The notes below the pieces were generated by a model that did no database searches, had not been told where the DNA came from, and was given only the letters and a program-made list of their open reading frames with translations. Shown piece by piece: positions 14,115-58,987 of a DNA stretch of 64,000 bases. Both the position numbers and the translations under genes were made by a program. Origin of the DNA: a bacterium (GTDB lineage: Bacteria; Patescibacteriota; UBA1384; CAILIB01); NCBI GenBank assembly GCA_037131105.1, contig JBAXRQ010000001.1, forward strand, positions 194,039-258,038, written 5' to 3'. Numbering within the stretch: the first letter of the stretch is position 1; each line of letters opens with the position of its first letter.

Positions 14115-14262
14115 GGCTCTAGTATAGAGGAATTAAGGGACAACAACTATGTTTAGGAGTGACCGGGAGTTCCGCTCCCATATATCTTTGGAGTCGCTAC
14201 ACGGCTTTCCGGACTTCGCCGGAAGCGCCAGCGAACCGCGGTTTCGAACCCGCACGATCCAA

Positions 14263-14303
14263 CCAGAGAAAAAGACCCATACAAGATGGGTCTTTTTCTC
14301 TGG
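14263..14303. terminator. 18-bp perfect hairpin (ccagagaaaaagacccat acaag atgggtctttttctctgg)
   Basis: Perfect inverted repeat with internal A/T runs; sits between divergent genes next to a 12-nt copy of the tRNA-Asp 3' end. Confidence 0.5.
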
Positions 14304-14391
14304 CGGGAGCGATGGGTCGATTTCCGAACTTCGTGTAATGTTGTTTCATACTTTGCTGATGGAGATATATACTTAGCTCATAATTAATATT

Positions 14392-15505: not shown

Positions 15506-16426
15506 TCAATGTACGGGACTAATTAAGGCAGCAGTATTATTGCGAGGATTCCCCACCTGTTCCGACACTGGATATGACTCCATGCTCTTCGCCTCATAGG
15601 GTATGAGCAATGATTGGAGGTGGGCTAGCGGCGCTTCAGGGTCCAGCCACACTGCCTCGTCCTTCCGATGAAGGATGACCGGCATCCGGTCGTGCACCTC
15701 AGCGGCCAGAGGGTTCGGCGCCGTCGTGATAATGGTATACGTCTGCAGCTCCTTACCTTCCTTGTTATGCCATTCCGCCGTGAGCCCCGCCAGGGCGAAG
15801 TACTCCTCTTCTCGCAGCCTGAAGTAATACGGCTGCTTGCCTGAGCCAACCTTCTTCCACTCGTAGTAGCCCGTGATGGGTACCAGGCACCGGCGCTTCT
15901 CGAACGACTTTTTGAAGGAGTTCTTCTCGTGCACCGTCTCAGCCCGGGCGTTTATCATCTTGTAGCCTATCTTCTCGTCTGACGCCCACACGGGGACGAG
16001 CCCCCACTTCATGAGCTCGAGGCGGTTGGGGCTGTTCTCCTCCATCGTCCTCACCTTCAGTATGGGTGTGCCGGTGAAGTCGATGACCGCCTCGTCGATG
16101 CTCTTGGGGGTCACGTCGGGGCTGTAGTCTCGGTAGATGCGGCAGAAGCGCTTGTGCACCTCACGGTAGAGGTTTGGATCGGGCGGGATGATGGCGATGT
16201 CGGGGGCGAGCATGCGGGCCTCGCGCACGTTGACGGCGGTCTTTATCCCCGCCTGCTTGGCCTCGTAGCTGGGGCTCACCACGCAGCCCCCGGGCCCCGT
16301 GTAGGCCGCAACGCCCACCGGCTTCCCCCTCAGAAGCGGCCAGGCCTGCTGCTCGGCACGCGCGAATGAGGCGTTCATGTCGATGTGCATGATCGTTGCG
16401 GGGTTGCGGTTAATCGGCAAGTCCAT
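15506..16426 (-). CDS. in-frame chimera: Y-family DNA polymerase N-terminal palm fragment fused to an SRAP (YedK/HMCES) C-terminal domain
   Basis: Residues ~1-125 carry IMHIDMNASFARAEQ and SIDEAVIDFTG, matching the DinB/UmuC catalytic motifs; residues ~135-306 (KWGLVPVWASD...INARAETV...RRCLVPITGYYEWKK...IHDRMPVIL...VSEQVGNPRNNTAALISPV) match SRAP; the SRAP N-terminal Cys2 nucleophile region and the polymerase fingers/thumb/little-finger are absent. Confidence 0.6.
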   Translation of the reverse strand: MDLPINRNPATIMHIDMNASFARAEQQAWPLLRGKPVGVAAYTGPGGCVVSPSYEAKQAGIKTAVNVREARMLAPDIAIIPPDPNLYREVHKRFCRIYRDYSPDVTPKSIDEAVIDFTGTPILKVRTMEENSPNRLELMKWGLVPVWASDEKIGYKMINARAETVHEKNSFKKSFEKRRCLVPITGYYEWKKVGSGKQPYYFRLREEEYFALAGLTAEWHNKEGKELQTYTIITTAPNPLAAEVHDRMPVILHRKDEAVWLDPEAPLAHLQSLLIPYEAKSMESYPVSEQVGNPRNNTAALISPVH

Positions 16427-21489: not shown

Positions 21490-23061
21490 ATGAAAGCAGT
21501 GCTATTGTGTCGTGTCTCAAGCAGAGATCAGGAACTAAGCGGATACTCTCTTCCCGCTCAGGAGAAGCTCCTTTCTCAGTATGCAGAGAACAAGGGACTA
21601 AAGGTGGACAAGGTGTATGCAATATCGGAGTCGGCAAGTGGTAGCAGCACTAGAAAGACGTTCAATGAGATGATGTCCTATATCCAGAAGGAAAAGGTGG
21701 GGTGTATCATTGCCGAGAAAGTCGACCGACTGACCCGTGAACTTAAGACGGCGGTCGCAATGAATGAGTGGTTAGAGGGAGACGACGGGCGTCAGCTCCA
21801 TCTGGTTAAGGATTCCCTGATCCTCCACAAGAACTCCCGAAGCCAGGAGAAGTTAAACTGGGGACTTCGGGTTATTCTTGCTAAGAACTACACGGACAAC
21901 CTTTCGGAGGAAGTCAGAAAGGGCTGGCAGGAGAAGATATCGCAGGGCTGGTATCCGGGTCATGCAAAGTTCGGGTATCGGTCTGTGGATGAGGGCCGAC
22001 GCAAGGTTATCGAGGTGGACCCGGTAACGGCACAGTGGGTGGTTAAGATGTTCGAAGCATATGGAAGCGGAGAGTACTCGCTTAAGTCCCTTGAGCAGAA
22101 GCTGTTTGCAGAGGGCCTCAGAACGATGCGTGGCAAGAAGGTCTCTGACACCAATATCAGGACCTATCTATCTGACAAATTCTACATCGGGAAGTTTGAC
22201 TGGTGTGGAGTCACGTACGAAGGCAAGCACCGTCCGATCATCAGTAGGAGTACGTTTGAGTTTGTCCAGGCCCGACTTGCGGGAAAGAAGCCGCCGAAGC
22301 ACTCCAAGCACGAGCACCTGTTTGGCGGGACATTCATGTGCGGATATTGCCAGGGCACCATAAGCTGGGAGGCACACAAAGGATTCAAATACGGTCACTG
22401 CAACCATCACAGGGAGTGCCCCTCAAAGAAGTGGGCTCGTGAGGACGAGGTGGACGAGGTTGTTGCTACTATATTTGGCAGGCTAGTTGTTTCAAGCCCT
22501 AGGCTCCAAGCCTGGCTAAGCAGGTCCTTAAAGGAGGTGCATAGGGAGGACGAGGATACACGTACCTCAGATCTAGTAATTCTCAACAAGCGACACGACC
22601 AAGTCTGCGCCATGATCGACAGGCTTTATGACGACAAGTTAGAAGGGCTTATTGACCGTGATATGTATGATAGAAAGTTCAAGCAGCTTGCAGAAGAGAA
22701 AGAAGGGCTGGCAAGCTCGATTCACGAGAAGTCCACGATGGGAACAGAGGCCACTGCACGAGCCGCAGAAGTATTCGATATCTTCCAGCAGGGTGAGCTG
22801 ATATATCGCAAGTCAAACGTGGCTACGAAACGAAAGATGGTACGTACTGTGTTTGAGGTCCTGGAGATCAGGGATAAGCAGGTCTCAGTAAGGTTTCGTC
22901 CTGAGTTTGAGGTACTTGCTAAGGCCGTGCTGCACACCAATGGTTCGAAGGTGGAGGATTTAGAGCCGTGTAGGGATAATATTTTCGAACTTGATAAAGT
23001 AGGCTCCTATAAAAAAGAAATAGGCACACTAGTGCCTACTTACTCTTCTTGGCGGGAGTGA
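21490..23061 (+). CDS. large serine recombinase (resolvase N-domain + recombinase domain + zinc-ribbon + coiled coil)
   Basis: N-terminal ...CRVSSRDQ catalytic Ser region; central recombinase domain; C4 zinc ribbon FMCGYCQGT...YGHCNHH; stop overlaps the tRNA-Asp 3' end. Confidence 0.85.
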   Translation: MKAVLLCRVSSRDQELSGYSLPAQEKLLSQYAENKGLKVDKVYAISESASGSSTRKTFNEMMSYIQKEKVGCIIAEKVDRLTRELKTAVAMNEWLEGDDGRQLHLVKDSLILHKNSRSQEKLNWGLRVILAKNYTDNLSEEVRKGWQEKISQGWYPGHAKFGYRSVDEGRRKVIEVDPVTAQWVVKMFEAYGSGEYSLKSLEQKLFAEGLRTMRGKKVSDTNIRTYLSDKFYIGKFDWCGVTYEGKHRPIISRSTFEFVQARLAGKKPPKHSKHEHLFGGTFMCGYCQGTISWEAHKGFKYGHCNHHRECPSKKWAREDEVDEVVATIFGRLVVSSPRLQAWLSRSLKEVHREDEDTRTSDLVILNKRHDQVCAMIDRLYDDKLEGLIDRDMYDRKFKQLAEEKEGLASSIHEKSTMGTEATARAAEVFDIFQQGELIYRKSNVATKRKMVRTVFEVLEIRDKQVSVRFRPEFEVLAKAVLHTNGSKVEDLEPCRDNIFELDKVGSYKKEIGTLVPTYSSWRE

Positions 23062-23126
23062 CCGGGTTCGAACCGGCGACCTCCACAGTGACAGTGTGGC
23101 GCTCTAACCAGCTGAGCTACACCCCC
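23050..23126 (-). tRNA. tRNA-Asp (anticodon GTC)
   Basis: Hand-folded cloverleaf: acceptor GGGGGTG/CACTCCC, D-arm GCTCAGCTGGTTAGAGC, anticodon loop CTGTCAC, T-arm GCCGGTTCGAACCCGGT, encoded CCA. Confidence 0.8.
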
Positions 23127-24122: not shown

Positions 24123-25544
24123 TTAGCTCTTGGAGCTGGCTACGTAGAGAACTTCGAAATTACTACCTGAAGAGAGAGGGGAGCCACTCTGTGAGGTGGT
24201 ATTGAAGAAGTTGGAAAGGTAATTGTGAGAAAACGGCTTGTTTCCGTTGGTATCGTAGAGGGCAGTCTGCCGGATGCTACCGCGGTATGGGGTGGTAGAA
24301 AGGCTGGCCTTGTATCCGTAGGTGCTTAGGGTGGTTACCAAGGCTTGGGCCTGCTTGACGGTAGTGCTTCCAGCTGGTGTCACGCTGATGGTCGCAGCTT
24401 CTTTGGCGATAAAGGGATCCGGGTTATTCTTCTGGAACCAGGTATGGATGGCGGAGTAGTTGCTCAGCCCCAAGACCGGATAGGAGATGTAACCGGCAGC
24501 GGTACCGGAACCGCTAGTGAGCAGACCTAGGGAGTCGGTGGTATCCAGGACACTGGTAGTGGTCTGGCTGGCGGGGATGTCTTTGTAGATACCCATGGCC
24601 TTCTGGATGTCCCCAGCCTGCATGTCGGTCCTGATGTGCTTGCCGAGGGTGGTAATGATGTTGGTCAGTTTGACTGGATTGGAAAGGGTGCCAAGCGAGA
24701 GGCCCTTCTGCTTGAGGGCGGCGATGACCAGTTGCTGCCGAGCAGAGCGGTCAAAGTCGCTGGTCGTCTCACGGGAGCGTGCATAGCGCAATGCGGTGGT
24801 ACCGTTCATGTGCTGCAGGCCGGCTGAAATATGGAAGGGACTGTAGCCGACGGTATTGTCATCAGGGAAGAACGGGTCAGTAATGGCCTTGGGTACGTTG
24901 ACGTCGATCCCACCCAGGGTATCTACCAGCTCCTTGGCTCCTGAGAAGTCAAGCAAGATGAAGTTTGAGACGTTGACGCCGAGTACGTTGCCTACAACCT
25001 GTCTTAGCAGATAGCCACCGTTTCCAGCCTTGGTCTGCTCGCCATCTCCGTATGCCTCGTTGATCTTGTGGGAGCCGAAACCGGGAATATTGACGTACAA
25101 GTCTCGGGGTATGGAGGTAATGCCCACCTTCTTGTTGATGGTGTCGATGGAAAGGACCTGGATAGAGTCGGTAAGTAGGGCGCCGGGATGGCCATCTCCG
25201 CCGATGCCTACCATTACCACATTGAAACGTCCGTCACCTGCCTGCTTGAACTGGCTGGCGCTAAGAGAAGAAAGTGACTGGCTGGGGTCGTAGGAAAGGA
25301 TGGAAGAACTGTCGCCCTGATGCTCGATGATGATCTCGCTTCTTACCCCGTTAAAGTAGGCATAGGCGTAGGTACCGCCTCCTGCAAGAAGTAGGAGAAG
25401 CGAGAGAGCAAACATGCGCCGCCAGGTAATGCGTGTGCGTTTTTTCTTGATAGGAGGCATGGCCATGACTCGCGGCAGAGGCCTGCGAACCTGATTGGCA
25501 CTATAAGGAGAGCTCTTGGAGTTGACGGGGGTCGGGTTGATCAT
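24123..25544 (-). CDS. LytR-CpsA-Psr (LCP) family cell-envelope phosphotransferase
   Basis: N-terminal TM and LCP core pattern (VMVGIGGDGH...TDSIQVLSID...SIPRDLYV...GFGSHKINEAY). Confidence 0.75.
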   Translation of the reverse strand: MINPTPVNSKSSPYSANQVRRPLPRVMAMPPIKKKRTRITWRRMFALSLLLLLAGGGTYAYAYFNGVRSEIIIEHQGDSSSILSYDPSQSLSSLSASQFKQAGDGRFNVVMVGIGGDGHPGALLTDSIQVLSIDTINKKVGITSIPRDLYVNIPGFGSHKINEAYGDGEQTKAGNGGYLLRQVVGNVLGVNVSNFILLDFSGAKELVDTLGGIDVNVPKAITDPFFPDDNTVGYSPFHISAGLQHMNGTTALRYARSRETTSDFDRSARQQLVIAALKQKGLSLGTLSNPVKLTNIITTLGKHIRTDMQAGDIQKAMGIYKDIPASQTTTSVLDTTDSLGLLTSGSGTAAGYISYPVLGLSNYSAIHTWFQKNNPDPFIAKEAATISVTPAGSTTVKQAQALVTTLSTYGYKASLSTTPYRGSIRQTALYDTNGNKPFSHNYLSNFFNTTSQSGSPLSSGSNFEVLYVASSKS

Positions 25545-25621
25545 GCCCCCTCACTATATCGGGAAACGGCCATTTATTCAATCCAATTAGGTCTGGGTTC
25601 TCCGGCAGTGGTTGGGAATAG

Positions 25622-25744
25622 TTTTGAGACGTATCCCGAATTAATCCTATAGGGGGTGAAATACTTTTGAGACGTATCCCGGAGGGATACAGGTATATGG
25701 AGATTTCCTTGAGTCGATCAGTATTTCACCCCCTATAGGATTAA
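25622..25744. repeat. structured intergenic repeat element, copy 1 (core flanked by a 24-bp inverted repeat) plus a truncated copy of the core 5' end
   Basis: Core ttttgagacgtatcccggagggatac...ttgagtcgatcag also at 36259-36312; flanking IR ttaatcctatagggggtgaaatac / gtatttcaccccctataggattaa; truncated copy ttttgagacgtatcccg at 25622-25638. Confidence 0.75.
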
Positions 25745-26821
25745 TAGTGCATCGCCGAACGAGAAGAACCGGTAGCGTTCTTTGATAGCCTCAGCGTAGA
25801 TGGTATGGAGCTGGGCAAGCATTGCCGACTCTGAGTCGACCACTCCCTTTCCTGGCCTGTTACCTAGGAACGCAGCTACCAGAAGTAGGAGTGAAGACTT
25901 GGGAAGGTGGAAGTTGGTGAGCAAAGCGTCTACTGCCTGAAAGCGATAGCCGGGATAGATGAACATATCAGTCTGGCTCCAGCCGGTCGTAATGTGATTC
26001 CCGGTTTCTATACGAGACTCGAGAGTACGGGTAGAAGTGGTCCCAACGGCCAACAGGGGGCGTCCCAAGCTGCGAGCAGCTTCAATCTCGGCGCCAGTAC
26101 CGGGACTGATATAGGTGGCTTCGTTGTGGAGTATATTTTCTTCGACTACTTCCTTGCGAAGCGGAAGGAAGGTGCCGATACCTACGTTCAGGGTTACTTC
26201 CGACCAGCTATGGCCTGCCTTTTCCAGTCTGGAAATGAGGCCAGGGGTGAAGTGCAGACCGGCAGTGGGGGCGGCTGCCGAACCTATCTCACCGGCAAAA
26301 ACCGTCTGGTACTGGTCAGAACGGGCCTGGGAGGTGGTTATGTAGGGAGGCAGGGGTACCTCTCCGAAGCGGGCAAAGACCTCCTCGAATGGCAGTTCTG
26401 ACGTAAGGCGGAGTAGAAAAGTGGTCATGGCCTCCTGCTCATCTCGTCCGACGATCTCAGCTTCCAACGGTATTTCAGTCGTTTCTTCCTTTCCTACCTG
26501 GAATCTCAGAAGATCTCTCCTCTGTAGGCCTTTGCCACGTAGGAGACAGCGGTAGGTGTCGGGACCTTCGGCGTTCAGGAAGAGTACCTCTACAGTCTTG
26601 CTCTGGTGAGAGGCGTAGAGTCGGCAGTGCCGTACCCGGGTATTGTTTGCCACTATCAAGGTCTGCGGCGCGAGCAGCGAAGGTAGGTTAGCTACTGTGG
26701 CATGCGAGATGCTGGAATCCTCGCGACGAAATACCAACAGACGGGCCTGGTCACGAGGCTCGACAGGATTCTGGGCGATGAGCTCAGCAGGAAGCGAGAA
26801 GTCTATGTCAGACAGGCGCAT
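25733..26821 (-). CDS. queA: S-adenosylmethionine:tRNA ribosyltransferase-isomerase
   Basis: QueA family signature motifs incl. GEVPLPPYI, TVFAGEIGSAAAPTAGLHFT. Confidence 0.85.
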   Translation of the reverse strand: MRLSDIDFSLPAELIAQNPVEPRDQARLLVFRREDSSISHATVANLPSLLAPQTLIVANNTRVRHCRLYASHQSKTVEVLFLNAEGPDTYRCLLRGKGLQRRDLLRFQVGKEETTEIPLEAEIVGRDEQEAMTTFLLRLTSELPFEEVFARFGEVPLPPYITTSQARSDQYQTVFAGEIGSAAAPTAGLHFTPGLISRLEKAGHSWSEVTLNVGIGTFLPLRKEVVEENILHNEATYISPGTGAEIEAARSLGRPLLAVGTTSTRTLESRIETGNHITTGWSQTDMFIYPGYRFQAVDALLTNFHLPKSSLLLLVAAFLGNRPGKGVVDSESAMLAQLHTIYAEAIKERYRFFSFGDALLIL

Positions 26822-31385: not shown

Positions 31386-31690
31386 TACGCGGAAGCTGGG
31401 GGAGTCGAACATCGTCCGCTTCCCGCTTCGGGTTGGAAACCCGCTTCGCCGCTTTCTCGTCTGCAGCGCTCCGCTTGCTTACGCGAGAAGCGCGAACGCT
31501 GGCGGACTCTCAGGAAACCCTCGGTTTCCTTGACGTTTGCTGCGCAAGCTACCTTCCGCCGCGGAGAAACTCCTGTTTCGGAAGACCTTCGCTGGTGCGG
31601 GACACGCACGGTGGAGCCACTCAGGTCCTAGCCGGTCCTTCCGGACCGCCGTCGCCTTCCGACGTTCAAATCCGCCCAGCGGCTCCAAAG
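31386..31690 (-). ncRNA. GC-rich structured non-coding RNA candidate (tmRNA or RNase P RNA; identity unresolved)
   Basis: About 300-nt gap between terminators with no credible ORF and many nested inverted repeats. The minus-strand frame ends ...PAFALLA-TAA, which is tag-peptide-like. Segments resemble the RNase P CR-I/CR-IV motifs (GGAAGGACCGGCU; GUGCG...CGCACCAGCG). Adjacent to tRNA-Thr. Confidence 0.3.
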
Positions 31691-31740
31691 AAAAGAACCC
31701 ACTAAAGTGGGTTCTTTTCTTTGGAGCCGCTGGGCGGAGT
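31664..31740. repeat. 33-bp perfect inverted repeat tccgcccagcggctccaaagaaaagaacccact / agtgggttcttttctttggagccgctgggcgga
   Basis: Right arm includes the 3' 17 nt of tRNA-Thr; left arm is an inverted copy of that tRNA 3' end preceded by a T-loop-like GTTCAAATCC. Confidence 0.8.
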
Positions 31741-31796
31741 CGGACCGCCGACCTCTACTTTACGAAAGTATTGCTCTACCAGCTGAGCTACAGCGG
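31721..31796 (-). tRNA. tRNA-Thr (anticodon CGT)
   Basis: Hand-folded: acceptor GCCGCTG/CAGCGGC, D-arm GCTCAGCTGGTAGAGC, anticodon loop TTCGTAA, T-arm GGCGGTCCGACTCCGCC, CCA encoded. Confidence 0.8.
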
Positions 31797-36097: not shown

Positions 36098-36233
36098 GGA
36101 GATACTTCTATTGCTTATTTATACGCTAACACAATGAAAGGTAACGGGGAATTTTCGCTTCGCTCAACGCTTTCTGCCCGAGCGAAGAAGCACGATCGAA
36201 CCCCCTTCGGGGTCCATTCCATGTATCTACATT

Positions 36234-36336
36234 AAAAGCATGCAGGGGCCAAGAAAACTTTTGAGACGTATCCCGGAGGGATACTGTAGATAGACTCCAT
36301 TGAGTCGATCAGTTTTCTTGGCCGCTGCATGCTTTT
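36234..36336. repeat. structured intergenic repeat element, copy 2 (same core as 25665-25721, different flanking 25-bp inverted repeat), abutting the tRNA-Gly 3' end
   Basis: Core ttttgagacgtatcccggagggatac...ttgagtcgatcag; IR aaaagcatgcaggggccaagaaaac / gttttcttggccgctgcatgctttt. Confidence 0.75.
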
Positions 36337-36409
36337 GGTGCGGGTAAGGGGAATCGGACCCCTTTCTCATCCTTGGGAAGGACGCGTTCTACCAGTGAAC
36401 TATACCCGC
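36336..36409 (-). tRNA. tRNA-Gly (anticodon CCC)
   Basis: Hand-folded: acceptor GCGGGTA/TACCCGC, D-arm GTTCACTGGTAGAAC, anticodon loop TTCCCAA, T-arm GGGGTCCGATTCCCC, CCA encoded. Confidence 0.8.
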
Positions 36410-43498: not shown

Positions 43499-44542
43499 AT
43501 GAATAGCTTGATAACCGTACTGGGTTTGCCGGTGCTGGGGAATTGGAGTGCTGAGTGCCGGCTTTTCGTACCACTTGGCCATGAGGCCTTCTGCCGTGAG
43601 ATTCTTCACGAGGATGAAGACGATAGTTCCAATGCTCCGTTAGGACAGCTCGAGGAGCTGCTTGGACTCATTGATACGTTGCATCGCGCCAGACAGAAGC
43701 CCTTTCTGCTGCTGACCCACATGAATCGGTTCCCCGGAGTTGTATTCAAGGAGCTGTATGACAGCGGCGTGCGGCAGTTTCCTATTCGTAAGCTTGATAG
43801 GAGGGCGCTGCTCAGCGGCTTTCCTCGGGACTTGGCCGTGGCGGTACCCGAGACCATGACATTGCTGGTTAGTACCAGGTATCGGGGGAGGGTTAAGCCC
43901 CGGTACGATGGCTGGAGGGTCATAAGGTCGAACTGGGGTGAAGGCGGACGCATACATGTCTCAGGGACGACGGCAGTAGTGGCAGAGCGGGAAGGACCGA
44001 TCTTTGGCCGCCAAGACCATCGGGCACTGAGAGAGGCTGGCATAGAGAAGATAGTGACACTGCCCCAGGGCGGGGCGTTGGTTGAGGAGCATGACGGGAG
44101 TAAAGTCTATGCCCGTATCGGCCATGTCGATGTCTTCGCCGGCCTCTGCACTGCCAATGACGGGAGCCTGCATCTTTTCCTGGATCCGCAGTACCCTTCC
44201 TTTGATAAGGATGTTCGTACAGCGATTCGGGAGTATGCCTTGCGGATGTGCGAGAAGGCAGATATCACTCTCCATGTCCCCGAGACCGACCTGCTGGTTC
44301 CCTATTCGCCCGGCTTTGTGCAGCTGCACGGCGGGAGGGTGATACTGACCGGGGGTGAGCCTTGGCTGAAGGATGAGCTGGTCAAGCTGCTCGGCCCTAT
44401 GAAGGTGTTCTGCATGAAGCAGCCGTTTAAGAGGATTCCCTGTTATCTTCGGGCCGGCATCCACTGTCTGGTCAATGAGTTGCCAGGGAACTTCCTGATA
44501 GATCTATTGGAGGAAACATATCGGAAAAACGCCACGGGCTAG
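43499..44542 (+). CDS. guanidino-group-modifying enzyme superfamily protein (agmatine deiminase/PAD/amidinotransferase-like)
   Basis: C-terminal RAGIHCLVNELP resembles the GGxIHCxTQQxP catalytic-Cys motif; ATG at 43499 preceded by GGGGAGGGAG RBS. Confidence 0.4.
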   Translation: MNSLITVLGLPVLGNWSAECRLFVPLGHEAFCREILHEDEDDSSNAPLGQLEELLGLIDTLHRARQKPFLLLTHMNRFPGVVFKELYDSGVRQFPIRKLDRRALLSGFPRDLAVAVPETMTLLVSTRYRGRVKPRYDGWRVIRSNWGEGGRIHVSGTTAVVAEREGPIFGRQDHRALREAGIEKIVTLPQGGALVEEHDGSKVYARIGHVDVFAGLCTANDGSLHLFLDPQYPSFDKDVRTAIREYALRMCEKADITLHVPETDLLVPYSPGFVQLHGGRVILTGGEPWLKDELVKLLGPMKVFCMKQPFKRIPCYLRAGIHCLVNELPGNFLIDLLEETYRKNATG

Positions 44543-44619
44543 CTGCCCGTGGCGTTTTGCTTTATGTACGGCTTATTTCCAGACGTGTGATCTGACAATA
44601 AGGTAGTTGCGTTGATAGG

Positions 44620-53311: not shown

Positions 53312-54121
53312 CTAGGATTTTTCTAGTTCCTCTGCCAGCTCTTTCACGATCCGCTTATCCGTCTCCGCCTTATCCCAGTCAACGGTTCCTGAAGTGTTTT
53401 GGTTGAATTGGATACCGTTCTCACAGCTCCAGGAGATCCTATTTAGTAGGGCGTATACCGTCACTATTTTTCTTTGCTCTGGACTGAGAACTTCGGCGTC
53501 CATAACGGCGTTGGTGTAGGCCTCTCCGTGACGGGTGCCATACCAACTGGCCTTGATGCGTCCGATGGTCTCCAACGGGTCGCCTTGGGCCAGAGCATCG
53601 AGGTCCACTAGTCCGCTGAACTCTCCCTCATGGACCATTACGTTTTTGCTGGACATGTCGTCGAAGTAGGTGGTTGCCTCCACATGGTTGAAGTAGTCGC
53701 GGTAGCGGTCGAAGACTTCATTAAGAAGCGATTCGAGATCGCCGTCCATTACTCCTGTCTGAAGGCCTCGCTCCTTGGCATTGTTGACCAGTTCCTCCAT
53801 GCAATCTGTCCAAGACTCGAGTAGCTTGCTGTCGTCTCCTAGCTTGTCGCCGAACCTCCCGTTGTTGGGTATCTCTCGGAGCTGTTTGAATATATGGGAG
53901 ATCTCACGGGCGATGGCTGTCAGCTCATCGTCACTAAGCGTATCAATGACGTTGGTGATGTCGGTGCCGGGAAGTTTGGAAAGCACCTGGTAGGCATAGG
54001 GAACGAGCTGGCGGGAGTAGTCCTCGCTCAGGATGCCGTCATCGCTGCAAGTTACTGAATGGCGGCTACCTGCCTCGAAGTCATTGCCGCCCGGGGAATA
54101 CCGTTGGAAAGTGAATGTCAT
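53312..54121 (-). CDS. phosphotransferase (APH/choline-kinase-like) family protein, catalytic motif degenerate
   Basis: Segment NVMVHEGEFSGLVDLDALAQGDPLETIG resembles the APH Brenner/DFG region but lacks the canonical HGD. Confidence 0.35.
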   Translation of the reverse strand: MTFTFQRYSPGGNDFEAGSRHSVTCSDDGILSEDYSRQLVPYAYQVLSKLPGTDITNVIDTLSDDELTAIAREISHIFKQLREIPNNGRFGDKLGDDSKLLESWTDCMEELVNNAKERGLQTGVMDGDLESLLNEVFDRYRDYFNHVEATTYFDDMSSKNVMVHEGEFSGLVDLDALAQGDPLETIGRIKASWYGTRHGEAYTNAVMDAEVLSPEQRKIVTVYALLNRISWSCENGIQFNQNTSGTVDWDKAETDKRIVKELAEELEKS

Positions 54122-54881
54122 AGGCCGTGGGGAGAGTGCTTGGACCGGCGCGTATTTCCGTGTCGCGCAGCCTACGGAGGCCAGAGAAGCAGCTGAAGCT
54201 GAGCGACGCTTCGCGGGCGACGATGAAGCTTTAGTTGCGGTCTACCTCAAGCATGGGCTACTCATAGATACCTATCCGGCGCTCAAGCGCCTCTACGAGC
54301 GGACCGACGATCCCCAGCGCAAACAGCGACTTCAGTATTACCTGCAGGCCGCCGGCCTTCTGAATTGCGCGACCTGCGGATTCCGAGTGACCGCCGAAAA
54401 GTCGAAGGGCCATATCTACTACCATTGCAACAATCGCACTGGAACCTGTACCAAGCGGGGCATCCGTGAGGAAGTTCTGGAGGGGCGGATCGACGCTTTG
54501 TTGGAGGACATTACCGTGTATCCCGAATATGAGCGGCTCGCTTTGGAGATTCTCGATGACATGCGACAGGAGGCATTGAGTAGCCGCCAGGCCATCTTTG
54601 AGTCGCGGCAGCAGGCTTTGGCCGATCTGAAGCGTCAGAAGGACGCCTTGCTGGGTATTTTCCTACAGGGTCACATTACTGACGACGAGTTCGCTGCCAA
54701 GAAGACTGAACTTGTGAAGCTGGACGGAGCAGTCAACCTCAAGGGCGAAGATTCGGAGGAAGAACTGAACGGGGTCTGGCAGACCGCCGCCAGCGCCGTG
54801 AGCTTCATGGCGCAGACAAGGATCCAGTTCCACACGGGGGGATGTGGCCAGCAAGCGCTATGTGGCGGCACACTTGGGTGA
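54120..54881 (+). pseudogene. 5'-truncated remnant of a large serine recombinase (zinc-ribbon + coiled-coil C-terminal part only)
   Basis: CATCGFRVTAEKSKGHIYYHCNNRTGTCTKRG zinc ribbon and downstream coiled coil are paralogous to the C-terminus of the 21490-23061 recombinase; the catalytic resolvase domain is absent. Confidence 0.5.
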
Positions 54882-56862: not shown

Positions 56863-57183
56863 CTAGCTGAGACTACGTATCCACCCTCCTAGCATCTTTC
56901 CAATTTCTTGGAGGAAGCTCTGGAGGGTGAGGTACTTTTTATCGTCTACGCACTTGGTCTCAAGGGCGAGTCGCACCAACATTTTTAACACATCGAGCTT
57001 GGCGCTGAGCGCCACGAGGGCATTCCTCTTCAGGCTGTTCGGTAGCTGGTTTGCGTGGAGCAACCCTTCAAGCAGTTCCAGCGCCGCATCCTCAAGCCGA
57101 GCTCCTAGCGAAAATCGCTCAACCTTCGGAAATAAATGGATCCATACATGCAGCTGGCAGTAGAAATTAAAAGTTTTCCCCAC
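56863..57183 (-). CDS. avd: Avd-like accessory variability determinant (four-helix-bundle protein)
   Basis: About 106 aa; ERFSLGARLEDAALELLEGL...IGKMLGGWIRS resembles the Bordetella-phage Avd / 23S-rRNA-IVS four-helix family; annotated start is GTG. Confidence 0.65.
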   Translation of the reverse strand: MGKTFNFYCQLHVWIHLFPKVERFSLGARLEDAALELLEGLLHANQLPNSLKRNALVALSAKLDVLKMLVRLALETKCVDDKKYLTLQSFLQEIGKMLGGWIRSLS

Positions 57184-57184
57184 G

Positions 57185-58237
57185 ATGGGGAGGGAACTGG
57201 GCGATTCTCGGGGGGGGAGTTATGGGCATAGTTATCCACAGATAAAGTTTGGCGACATCGTTTCGCTGGAAAACCTGGTAAAGGCCTGGTACGAGTTCCG
57301 CAACGGCAAGCGGTCTAAGCGGGACGTCCAGGAGTTTGAGTTCACCCTTGAGGATAGCATATTTGAACTCGCTGAGGAACTAAAAAACGGCTCCTACAAG
57401 CCACAAAGGTATCACCAGTTCCGCATCAACGACCCCAAGCCGCGCCTCATCAGCAAGGCTGCCGTCCGGGATAGGCTAGTGCACCACGCCATCTATCGCA
57501 TCTTGTACCCCCACTTTGATACCAGCTTCATCTTCGACTCGTACTCATGCCGGGTGAACAAGGGTACCCACAAGGCCTTTGACCGTCTGCAGGATATGAT
57601 TGGGGTGGTAAGCCGGAATTACACGAAGCCCTGCTTCGCCCTGAAGATGGACATCCGCCGCTTCTTCGACAGCATCGACCACGGCATCCTGCTAGAACTA
57701 CTCAAGTACCGCATAGAAGATGAAAAAGTTATTAACTTGCTCCACGAAATCATCGAGAGCTTTGAGGTGAAGCCGGGCAAGGGCATGCCGATAGGCAACC
57801 TCACCTCTCAGCTCTTCGCCAACGTCTATATGGACCCGCTGGACAAGTTCGTGAAGCACAAGCTTAAGGCGAGGTACTACCTGCGCTATGCCGATGACTT
57901 CCTTATCCTGGCCAGTTCCGAGTCGGAGCTGATGGGATGCTTCGTTGAAATAAACGTGTTTCTTAAAGAAACATTAAAACTTGAGCTGCACCCGAACAAG
58001 ATCTCGTTACGGAAATTAAGCTGGGGAATCGACTTCGTCGGCTACGTCGCCCGCCCGCACTATTCCGTTCCCAGGAACGGCACCGCCAAGCGGATGCTGC
58101 GGAATATTGGCAAAGTCGCCGATCCGGAGAAGGTACCGGCCACGCTTGATTCCTATCTGGGATACTTAAGCCATGTCAGCGCCAGGAAAATCGAGGACGA
58201 GCTGCGGCAGAAGGCGGCAGATATTTTGGGGCACTAA
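57185..58237 (+). CDS. DGR reverse transcriptase
   Basis: RT motifs 1-7, including DIRRFFDSIDH, RYADDF, and the DGR-diagnostic IGNLTSQLFANVYM (SQ instead of the group-II SP); 350 aa. Confidence 0.85.
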   Translation: MGRELGDSRGGSYGHSYPQIKFGDIVSLENLVKAWYEFRNGKRSKRDVQEFEFTLEDSIFELAEELKNGSYKPQRYHQFRINDPKPRLISKAAVRDRLVHHAIYRILYPHFDTSFIFDSYSCRVNKGTHKAFDRLQDMIGVVSRNYTKPCFALKMDIRRFFDSIDHGILLELLKYRIEDEKVINLLHEIIESFEVKPGKGMPIGNLTSQLFANVYMDPLDKFVKHKLKARYYLRYADDFLILASSESELMGCFVEINVFLKETLKLELHPNKISLRKLSWGIDFVGYVARPHYSVPRNGTAKRMLRNIGKVADPEKVPATLDSYLGYLSHVSARKIEDELRQKAADILGH

Positions 58238-58625: not shown

Positions 58626-58876
58626 CTACGACTCGCCCTACAATACAGAAAATAGACTGATCTGTACAGCGTCCGGGGGAGTCTCACGTCGCTCCGCTCC
58701 TCGGAACCCCACGGGTTCCGACGCTCACTTCGCTCGTTGCCTCCTTCCACGGGGAAACTCCCGTTTCTCACTGTCCGCCTTCGGCGGACAAGCAGGTATG
58801 CACATGGTAGAAGCAGTATCCCCCGGATACTGCTTATCCCTCCCCCTTCACTGTTCGATTCCCACCACTCTTCAGG

Positions 58877-58915
58877 CCAGAAAAATAGACACCCAGTGGG
58901 TGTCTATTTTTCTGG
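58877..58915. terminator. 18-bp perfect hairpin ccagaaaaatagacaccc agt gggtgtctatttttctgg abutting the tRNA-Lys 3' end
   Basis: Direct reading; right arm ends in the encoded CCA of tRNA-Lys. Confidence 0.6.
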
Positions 58916-58987
58916 TGGGTCCGGTGGGAATCGAACCCACAACCAATGGCTTAAGAGGCCACTGCTCTACCGTTGAGCTACAGACCC
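58913..58987 (-). tRNA. tRNA-Lys (anticodon CTT)
   Basis: Hand-folded: acceptor GGGTCTG/CGGACCC, D-arm GCTCAACGGTAGAGC, anticodon loop CTCTTAA, T-arm GTGGGTTCGATTCCCAC, CCA encoded. Confidence 0.8.

Follow-up and report, generated by a model that had tools for sequence, protein, structure and literature searches.

Small hairpin repeats with a conserved interior and variable mirrored arms in a Patescibacteria genome: a candidate mobile family

The window, by which we mean the whole 64,000-nt stretch that was analysed, comes from an uncultured bacterium and carries two full copies, W1 and W2, of a small structured unit. W1 overlaps the end of queA, with a LytR-family gene as neighbour, and W2 follows a tRNA-Gly gene. 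A truncated copy adjoins W1 and a possible relic lies further along the window. The features concerned are the following.

24123-25544, minus strand: LytR-family gene, neighbour of W1
25605-25639, minus strand: truncated older copy, directly after W1, with loop, 3' half of the hairpin, second motif (M2) and a degenerate right flank
25640-25745, minus strand: W1, full unit (arm 25722-25745, core 25665-25721, arm 25640-25663)
25733-25745, minus strand: end of queA inside the W1 arm, which takes in the final three codons (TTA ATC CTA) and the TAG stop
25733-26821, minus strand: queA, open reading frame with PF02547
36234-36336, minus strand: W2, full unit (arm 36313-36336, core 36259-36312, arm 36234-36257)
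36336-36409, minus strand: tRNA-Gly(ccc), its final base being the first base of the W2 arm
58806-58840, minus strand: possible core relic downstream of tRNA-Lys, with linker and hairpin GCAGTATCC-CCC-GGATACTGC kept and no M2

Since the genes flanking W1 and W2 are all on the minus strand, the natural reading of the element is the reverse complement of that used in the first-pass annotation. In this gene sense the core of 54-57 nt is built from a pair of invariant direct motifs (CGACTCAAGG and CGTCTCAA), a linker that varies and a hairpin of 7 bp. The order is (CTGA/TCGT)TCGACTCAAGG, here called M1, followed by a linker of 13-16 variable nt that often includes CYATATAC, the 7-bp hairpin with its 3-nt loop, and M2, which has the form CGTCTCAA(GG/AA), also written ACGTCTCAAGG/AAAA. 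M1 and M2, about 40 nt apart, repeat CGWCTCAA in direct orientation and are nearly invariant over a 10-nt motif, and the core alignment contains 23 invariant columns. In W1 the core reads CTGATCGACTCAAGG, linker, GTATCCC-TCC-GGGATAC and GTCTCAAAA. The hairpin occurs as GTATCCC/GGGATAC, GTACTCC/GGAGTAC and ATATCCT/AGGATAT; 94.6% of cells are paired and four of the seven pairs have changed on both sides, values which shuffles and slid registers fall far below. As judged from the aligned copies, the core hairpin retains its pairing by way of double changes.

Several known kinds of small functional sequence were compared with the core and rejected. By eye, CUGAUCGA is not the hammerhead core (CUGAUGA...GAAA...GUC) and is absent from the TCGTT variant, and the twister, pistol and hatchet cores did not withstand the same comparison. 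A promoter module was dismissed because its hexamers, TTGAGA and TATATG, are 21 nt apart and too distant, and a small open reading frame after the hairpin GGAGG (plus strand) because the reading frames vary between copies. M1 GTTCGACTC looks like a tRNA T-loop but lacks a stem.

The earlier observation of a core repeated at two places, with a half copy in addition, is confirmed by exact matches. The cores lie precisely at 25665-25721 and 36259-36312, the plus-strand 26-mer TTTTGAGACGTATCCCGGAGGGATAC occurs exactly twice (25665-25690 and 36259-36284) and in none of 100 shuffles, TTGAGTCGATCAG is exact at 25709 and 36300, and the half copy ttttgagacgtatcccga lies at 25622-25639. A covariance model (R1) built from eight cores recovers exactly the eight known copies and three partial ones in the ~101 kb read. 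It scores W1 at 73.4 bits (E = 1e-14) and W2 at 74.5 bits, and it matches the truncated copy over 25622-25652, equivalent to model positions 24-54. In that copy M2 is TCGGGATACGTCTCAAAA at 25622-25639, and the degenerate right flank, which can still be aligned, starts CTATTCCCAACC. Folding energies of the whole units in the window are -56 to -64 kcal/mol (z = -8 to -11 relative to shuffles), W1 being at -56 kcal/mol with z = -10.6. The possible relic at 58806-58840 is missed by R1 and gives a weak local alignment with the core of copy C described below (12.5, shuffle maximum 10.5); a palindrome (inverted repeat I10) covers the place where M2 would be expected. Two further weak 13-mer matches (17678 and 38288), both inside coding sequence, were discarded as chance.

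Two other contigs carry further copies. One, L013, is identical to the window across 11,472 nt and runs 9.4 kb beyond the window end. The other, L008, is a 284-kb ENA contig from the same samples as the window and contains the single JGI metagenome contig found. The common samples and an identical 22-mer suggest that L008 and the window derive from one genome, and the ~101 kb with copies appears to belong to one organism.

L013, past the window: G, full copy, directly after tRNA-Arg(tct)
L013, past the window: H, full copy, directly after the ...GCGCACCA end of an unclassified structured repeat, the end preceding H being ...CACCA
L008, upstream of dnaA: F, A, B and C, full copies, and D and E, partial copies

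The family total is therefore eight full and three partial copies at five or more unrelated loci in the ~101 kb covered, roughly a tenth of a genome estimated at 1 Mb or more. The units measure 101-106 nt and contain no conserved open reading frame, the short reading frames differing among copies. Chance similarity or a single local duplication might have been considered with just two full copies in the window; zero matches are expected by chance and six more full copies lie on other contigs, which leaves this explanation a practically negligible probability. The first-pass annotation had judged the pattern not to be chance and had proposed a search for further copies, with a local duplication only as the contrary outcome, and the six copies outside the window bear out that judgement.

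A pattern scan of 185,579 species or reference genomes returned four matches only, all without hairpin or arms; since about seven are expected for 21 fixed bases, these are chance matches. The JGI metagenome scan with the 22-mer found one contig, from the same organism as the window, and no match was obtained in two scans of viral contigs or among plasmids and phages. R1 detected no copies in ~66 kb around dnaA of six relatives (DnaA 65-74% identical). No Rfam family matched the core or the element at gathering or permissive thresholds, even at E <= 10, the sole Rfam matches being weak chance ones to microRNAs that are due to the long stem. As far as these searches reach, the family is restricted to one lineage. 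The closest relative of the QueA of the window is only 58% identical, the named relatives being Patescibacteria, and such relatives are too distant for an orthologous nucleotide comparison of empty sites. No presence/absence polymorphism was seen among the contigs of the organism, which are identical across three or four samples.

The arms that embrace the cores are as follows.

W1: 25640-25663 / 25722-25745, 24 bp, 0 mismatches (26/26 with two core nt on each side)
W2: 36234-36257 / 36313-36336, 24 bp, 1 mismatch (23/24)
F: 25 bp, 0 mismatches
C: 23 bp, 2 mismatches
G: 26 bp, 4 mismatches
H: 26 bp, 0 mismatches
B: about 11 bp, mismatches not scored
A: none

Arm lengths span 23-26 bp in six copies (W1, W2, F, C, G and H), and the 24-25 bp given in the first-pass annotation is 24 nt in both W1 and W2. 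The same annotation described a different and perfect inverted repeat around each copy. Perfection is true of W1 and falls one pair short in W2, and difference is half true: homology is evident among the arms of W2, G and C together with the right flanks of A, B and D. Ungapped alignment of the W2, G, C and H arms gives 15-16 identical positions of 24, the right flanks of A, B and D resemble one another as well as these arms, and the inner 12 arm nt are alike in W1, W2, G and H. Overall, arm identity between copies ranges from 17 to 75% with a mean of ~0.45, and a loose inner motif CCWGAAAA is found in most.

The pairing of the arms is far stricter than their sequence. In the six copies both members have changed in every one of the 24 pairs, 95.1% of cells are paired, and G-U pairs make up 1 of 144 cells. 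The covariation of the outer stems claimed earlier is thus real, but with G-U pairs this rare it offers no evidence for a selected RNA structure. The arms are better regarded as DNA palindromes made or maintained by copying than as drifted RNA stems, since G-U is so scarce despite full covariation, and their complementarity points to mirroring at the DNA level rather than RNA covariation.

Part of the arm sequence appears to come from the host. In W1 the 13 outermost arm nt are coding sequence for the usual Leu-Ile-Leu-stop end of QueA, and the C-terminus GDALLIL* is equal in length to the usual GDAMLIL* in 39 of the 40 homologues listed. The TAG stop codon at 25733-25735 lies within the arm, as the first-pass annotation had it, and the opposite arm is a mirror image of the final queA codons and stop. 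In L013, a core-less hairpin (P) lies 130 nt upstream of H as its positional paralogue and has the outer arm sequence in common with it. As the outer arm of W1 is native queA coding sequence and that of H is like P, some arm sequence is evidently host-derived; together with the core-less palindromes described below, these two cases suggest that host hairpins are involved in the arms.

The dispersed copies occupy a very uniform position. W1, W2, G and H each adjoin a gene, tRNA or tRNA-like end on its 3' side and are co-oriented with the upstream gene; they either overlap a stop codon or begin 0 nt past the CCA of a tRNA-type end, and the contact between W2 and the tRNA-Gly end reported earlier consists of the shared base 36336. 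By GC skew the plus strand of the window is leading, and the four copies read on the opposite strand, whereas F, A and B in the array read with the leading strand. Copy orientation follows the upstream gene and not replication, at n=4 events, which is below significance; a replication-linked orientation is contradicted by the GC skew and was rejected. In terms of intrinsic terminators the four dispersed copies are rightly placed, a U-rich tract follows W2, G and C and is missing after W1 and F, and a simple terminator scanner does not call the units because of the 54-nt loop. A promoter-like site for the LytR gene is found downstream of W1.

Such a position invites the explanation that the unit is a host RNA module, forming the 3' trailer of the transcript of the tRNA or mRNA upstream. 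Its 24-bp stem would then serve as terminator, 3'-end protector or RNase III substrate, and single-stranded M1 and M2 together with the small loop hairpin would bind a protein or guide processing. The four dispersed copies, co-oriented with their upstream neighbours even though the genes are on the lagging strand, fit this explanation, as do the U-rich tracts behind the stem in W2, G and C, the covarying inner hairpin, the promoter-like site for the next gene after W1, and the core-less hairpins that take the same place after other tRNAs. It is nevertheless difficult to reconcile with the near lack of G-U pairs, unlike RNA stems under selection, with the missing U tract in W1 and F, and with the lack of an Rfam match and of copies in relatives. 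Copy C is moreover inverted within a unit, and the array lies upstream of genes by DnaA boxes, an arrangement that makes no sense for a 3' module. We regard a host RNA module as unlikely.

The array in L008 is a tandem repeat with a 101-nt period, composed of the 54-nt core and a 47-nt spacer, which agrees with the length of the dispersed units. Its four full and two partial units take up ~550 bp of a 600-nt region upstream of dnaA, directly after two TTATCCACA DnaA boxes and at the minimum of the cumulative GC skew of L008. Within it, the removal of L008 9780-9880 (101 nt: core C and both arms) leaves flanks that align end to end with unit B. The target site of C has no palindrome, and C is inverted inside its host unit. 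A 101-nt unit cleanly nested in another unit implies that the whole hairpin moves, and arms would then travel with the core, as indicated also by the arm homology and by the uniform 101-106-nt length of the units. This restoration of an interrupted neighbouring unit gives direct support to the MITE-like reading put forward in the first-pass annotation. The two half copies both begin in the hairpin loop, and no consistent direct repeat that could be a target-site duplication was seen at the unit junctions.

The most plausible interpretation, to which we assign a probability of about one half, is a lineage-specific family of small, non-coding and non-autonomous MITE-like mobile hairpin repeats. 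On this best reading the family is previously undescribed, and a mobile repeat rather than a proven functional RNA. The sequences themselves display a family with near-invariant M1 and M2, a covarying hairpin, the nested insertion of a whole unit and tandem amplification. Speaking against it, conservation is much lower in the arms than in the interior, where a classical MITE has the reverse, part of the arm sequence is host-derived, no target-site duplication could be defined, and no transposase or candidate enzyme was linked to any copy in the 101 kb read.

The array may alternatively be seen as an origin-associated, iteron-like set of DNA-binding sites to which the dispersed copies are secondary, given that its units stand beside two DnaA boxes upstream of dnaA at the GC-skew minimum and contain M1 and M2 as direct repeats ~40 bp apart. 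The relatives keep paired DnaA boxes and have no units, the motif G[AT]CTCAAGG is at chance level in six of them (2 matches in 133 kb on both strands, ~1 expected), and the dispersed copies are distant from the origin. A conserved origin function was rejected on the grounds that relatives retain the boxes and not the motif, and the origin-array explanation as a whole is very improbable.

The origin region shows some further features. The DnaA-box pair (TTATCCACA), 20 nt apart, lies within AAGAGTTATCCACA at L008 9397-9430, and a pair upstream of dnaA is kept in four of the five relatives scanned (L015, L017, L020 and L023; none reported for L021). Between rpmH and dnaA, L008 has a toxin-antitoxin pair (PIN, RHH) and an AAA_33 kinase gene. 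Relatives have core-less hairpins of the same geometry, with 23-24-bp near-perfect arms and a 29-nt centre, at L015 1674-1750 (DnaA 74% identical) and L017 3153-3227 (68%). The L015 hairpin adjoins the paired DnaA boxes and its centre motif occurs again 127 nt away with short arms. The L015 and L017 hairpins may represent a second family of a similar kind.

One may also propose that the core alone, with ~10 nt of its own inverted ends, is mobile and inserts at the apex of existing palindromic terminators, so that the outer arms are host sequence. Perfect 12-19-bp core-less palindromes are common after CCA and at stop codons, H with its core and P without are positional paralogues with a common outer arm, and the outer arm of W1 is queA coding sequence. 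The similarity of the inner 12 arm nt in W1, W2, G and H would agree with ends belonging to the core, and there are known insertion sequences whose target is a palindromic REP element (PMC1525189). Copy C speaks against this, having carried both its 23-bp arms into a palindrome-free site. So does the fact that W2, G and C have, at unrelated loci, outer arms homologous to each other and to the flanks of A, B and D; arm length is also uniform at 23-26 bp, half of the 47-nt array spacer. Insertion of the core at an apex is, on balance, unlikely.

Mirror symmetry is not confined to the units. In five to six of eight tRNA genes the gene's own T-arm and acceptor 3' strand recur as an exact inverted copy of 13-17 nt, placed just past a palindromic hairpin that starts 0-2 nt after CCA. 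These inverted copies score 13-17 with a shuffle maximum of 10-12, and each such tRNA 3' half forms part of a palindrome of ~80-130 nt. At W2 a weaker mirror symmetry (76%) reaches 36209-36361, into the tRNA T-arm, and the cores of W2 and G are centred in symmetric regions. The perfect core-less palindromes of 12-19 bp, which are situated directly after CCA or overlap stop codons, are listed together with the mirror sites.

31664-31745, window: mirror site at tRNA-Thr
36209-36361, window: mirror site at tRNA-Gly
58853-58936, window: mirror site at tRNA-Lys
L013 12120-12340: mirror site at tRNA-Arg
L008 12967-13047 and L018 18017-18160: mirror sites at tRNA-Ser
31688-31721, 44526-44558 and 58877-58915, window, and L008 12987-13026: core-less palindromes

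Since the inverted copies are present with or without a core, mirror symmetry around 3'-end hairpins is a general feature of this genome. We know of no described equivalent of such mirror palindromes at tRNA 3' ends.

Several tRNA-like sequences were encountered in passing. Two repeats of ~145-200 nt, U and V (L013 16520-16665 and 16200-16405, minus strand), have a cloverleaf-like fold, and U ends ...GCGCACCA, a tRNA-like 3' end. Each starts with an apparent reverse-complement T-arm; neither is called a tRNA by ARAGORN or matched in Rfam, and partial relatives occur in the window at 36100-36222 and 58684-58723. A palindrome CCAGAGAAAAAGACCCAT...ATGGGTCTTTTTCTCTGG at 14255-14311 of the window has tRNA-3'-end-like sequence on both sides (...CGATCCAACCA on the plus strand and ...CGCTCCCGCCA on the minus strand), where ARAGORN and Rfam again call no tRNA.

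On the MITE-like reading, M1, M2 and the hairpin, not the arms, would be what a putative trans-acting enzyme recognises. The arms would be kept or remade as perfect DNA palindromes with one arm copied from the other, either by template switching or by gene conversion, and the same copying would mirror tRNA 3' ends over the core-less hairpins of the genome. Copies may then persist at 3'-end and terminator positions, where a long hairpin would be harmless or useful.

One may speculate further that the arms are re-templated and not inherited, an active process extending perfect palindromes outward from whatever hairpin nucleus is present, one flank being copied onto the other. Replication template switching or a resident reverse transcriptase self-primed on hairpin-ended transcripts could be candidates, and the core would be a mobile nucleus recognised by its motifs and by arm structure, not arm sequence. 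We hold this to be quite unlikely and decidedly speculative. If true, it would explain both the inverted copies at tRNA 3' ends and the hairpins of relatives with the same geometry and another centre.

Small intergenic repeats of bacteria, among them MITEs, Correia, RUP, ERIC and BOX elements, have been reviewed (PMC3184786, PMC2229807). The family resembles these in being ~100 nt long, non-coding, multi-copy and an intergenic long hairpin, and in that such repeats insert into each other and often lie near gene 3' ends. Unlike in a MITE, the conserved part is the interior (M1, M2 and hairpin), the arms differ and yet are complementary, the conserved end motifs are direct and not inverted, and neither a target duplication nor, in the 101 kb, a parent transposase was found.

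REP, BIME and REPIN elements, which are mobilised by RAYT (Y1) transposases (PMC3116915, PMC3333891), are likewise extragenic hairpins at gene 3' ends; they are found single, in inverted pairs or clustered, and their action depends on DNA or RNA secondary structure. A REPIN has conserved REP arms and a variable loop, the reverse of what is described here. A REP is a conserved 20-40-nt imperfect palindrome accompanied by a RAYT; here the conserved core is non-palindromic and the arms are variable, the annotated neighbours in the 101 kb include no RAYT/Y1 transposase gene, and there is no conserved GTAG-type head. IS1397, ISKpn1, IS621 and ISPpu9/10 target REP palindromes (PMC1525189), and in these too a mobile sequence lies within a hairpin-forming host palindrome. 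They are complete insertion sequences that encode transposases, and what they recognise is one conserved REP, whereas the present element is 54-106 nt and copy C, at least, brings its own arms.

The family shares with the attC sites of integrons a folded hairpin whose sequence varies between copies with the structure kept. In attC the conserved R''/L'' and L'/R' boxes are at the base of the stem, the apex is variable and the context is one of cassettes with intI. In our family the apex is conserved and the base varies, there is no cassette context, and no attC-type integrase was seen among the annotated neighbours of the copies. A CRISPR-like array was rejected, as the units differ internally, the 47-nt spacers are mutually homologous and cas genes are absent from the vicinity.

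Quasipalindrome correction by template switching is an established mechanism of replication error. It would account for the perfect arms, for the missing G-U intermediates and for the mirrored queA codons and tRNA 3' ends; being a mutational process it is not an element family, and its operation in the present organism is conjectural.

The neighbourhood contains large serine recombinases and a DGR reverse transcriptase as its only recombination or retro-element genes, none of them tied to the element. Two large serine recombinases and one fragment are found in about 75 kb (window 21490-23061 and 54033-54881, plus strand; L013 16827-18392, minus strand; the fragment has a zinc-ribbon domain only), and these loci are probably integrated elements. 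That at 21490-23061 runs into the 3' end of tRNA-Asp (23050-23126, minus strand), and that of L013 lies ~300 nt upstream of copy H. The DGR core, at 56863-58237 of the window, comprises an Avd-like gene (56863-57183, minus strand) and the reverse transcriptase (57185-58237, plus strand; PF00078). Elsewhere, an open reading frame at 15506-16426 (minus strand) joins an N-terminal impB/mucB/samB (Y-family polymerase) segment to a C-terminal SRAP (abasic-site sensing) domain and may be a fusion or a frameshifted gene pair.

Few descriptions of small repeats in reduced Patescibacteria (CPR) genomes turned up in the literature searched in full text, and a genome of ~1 Mb is here seen still to host a proliferating non-coding element, one that breaks short-read assemblies around its copies. 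Compared with MITEs and REPINs its design is inverted: the interior, which contains direct motifs, is conserved, and the arms vary freely in sequence but pair perfectly. This suggests recognition through structure and internal motifs. Should the element be simply a selfish repeat, its value would lie chiefly in annotation and in marking strains. The apparent palindrome-growing behaviour of the genome is the more unusual lead, and the exact placement after CCA, taken with the mirrored tRNA 3' ends, suggests that this organism makes or maintains its 3'-end hairpins by an uncommon route.
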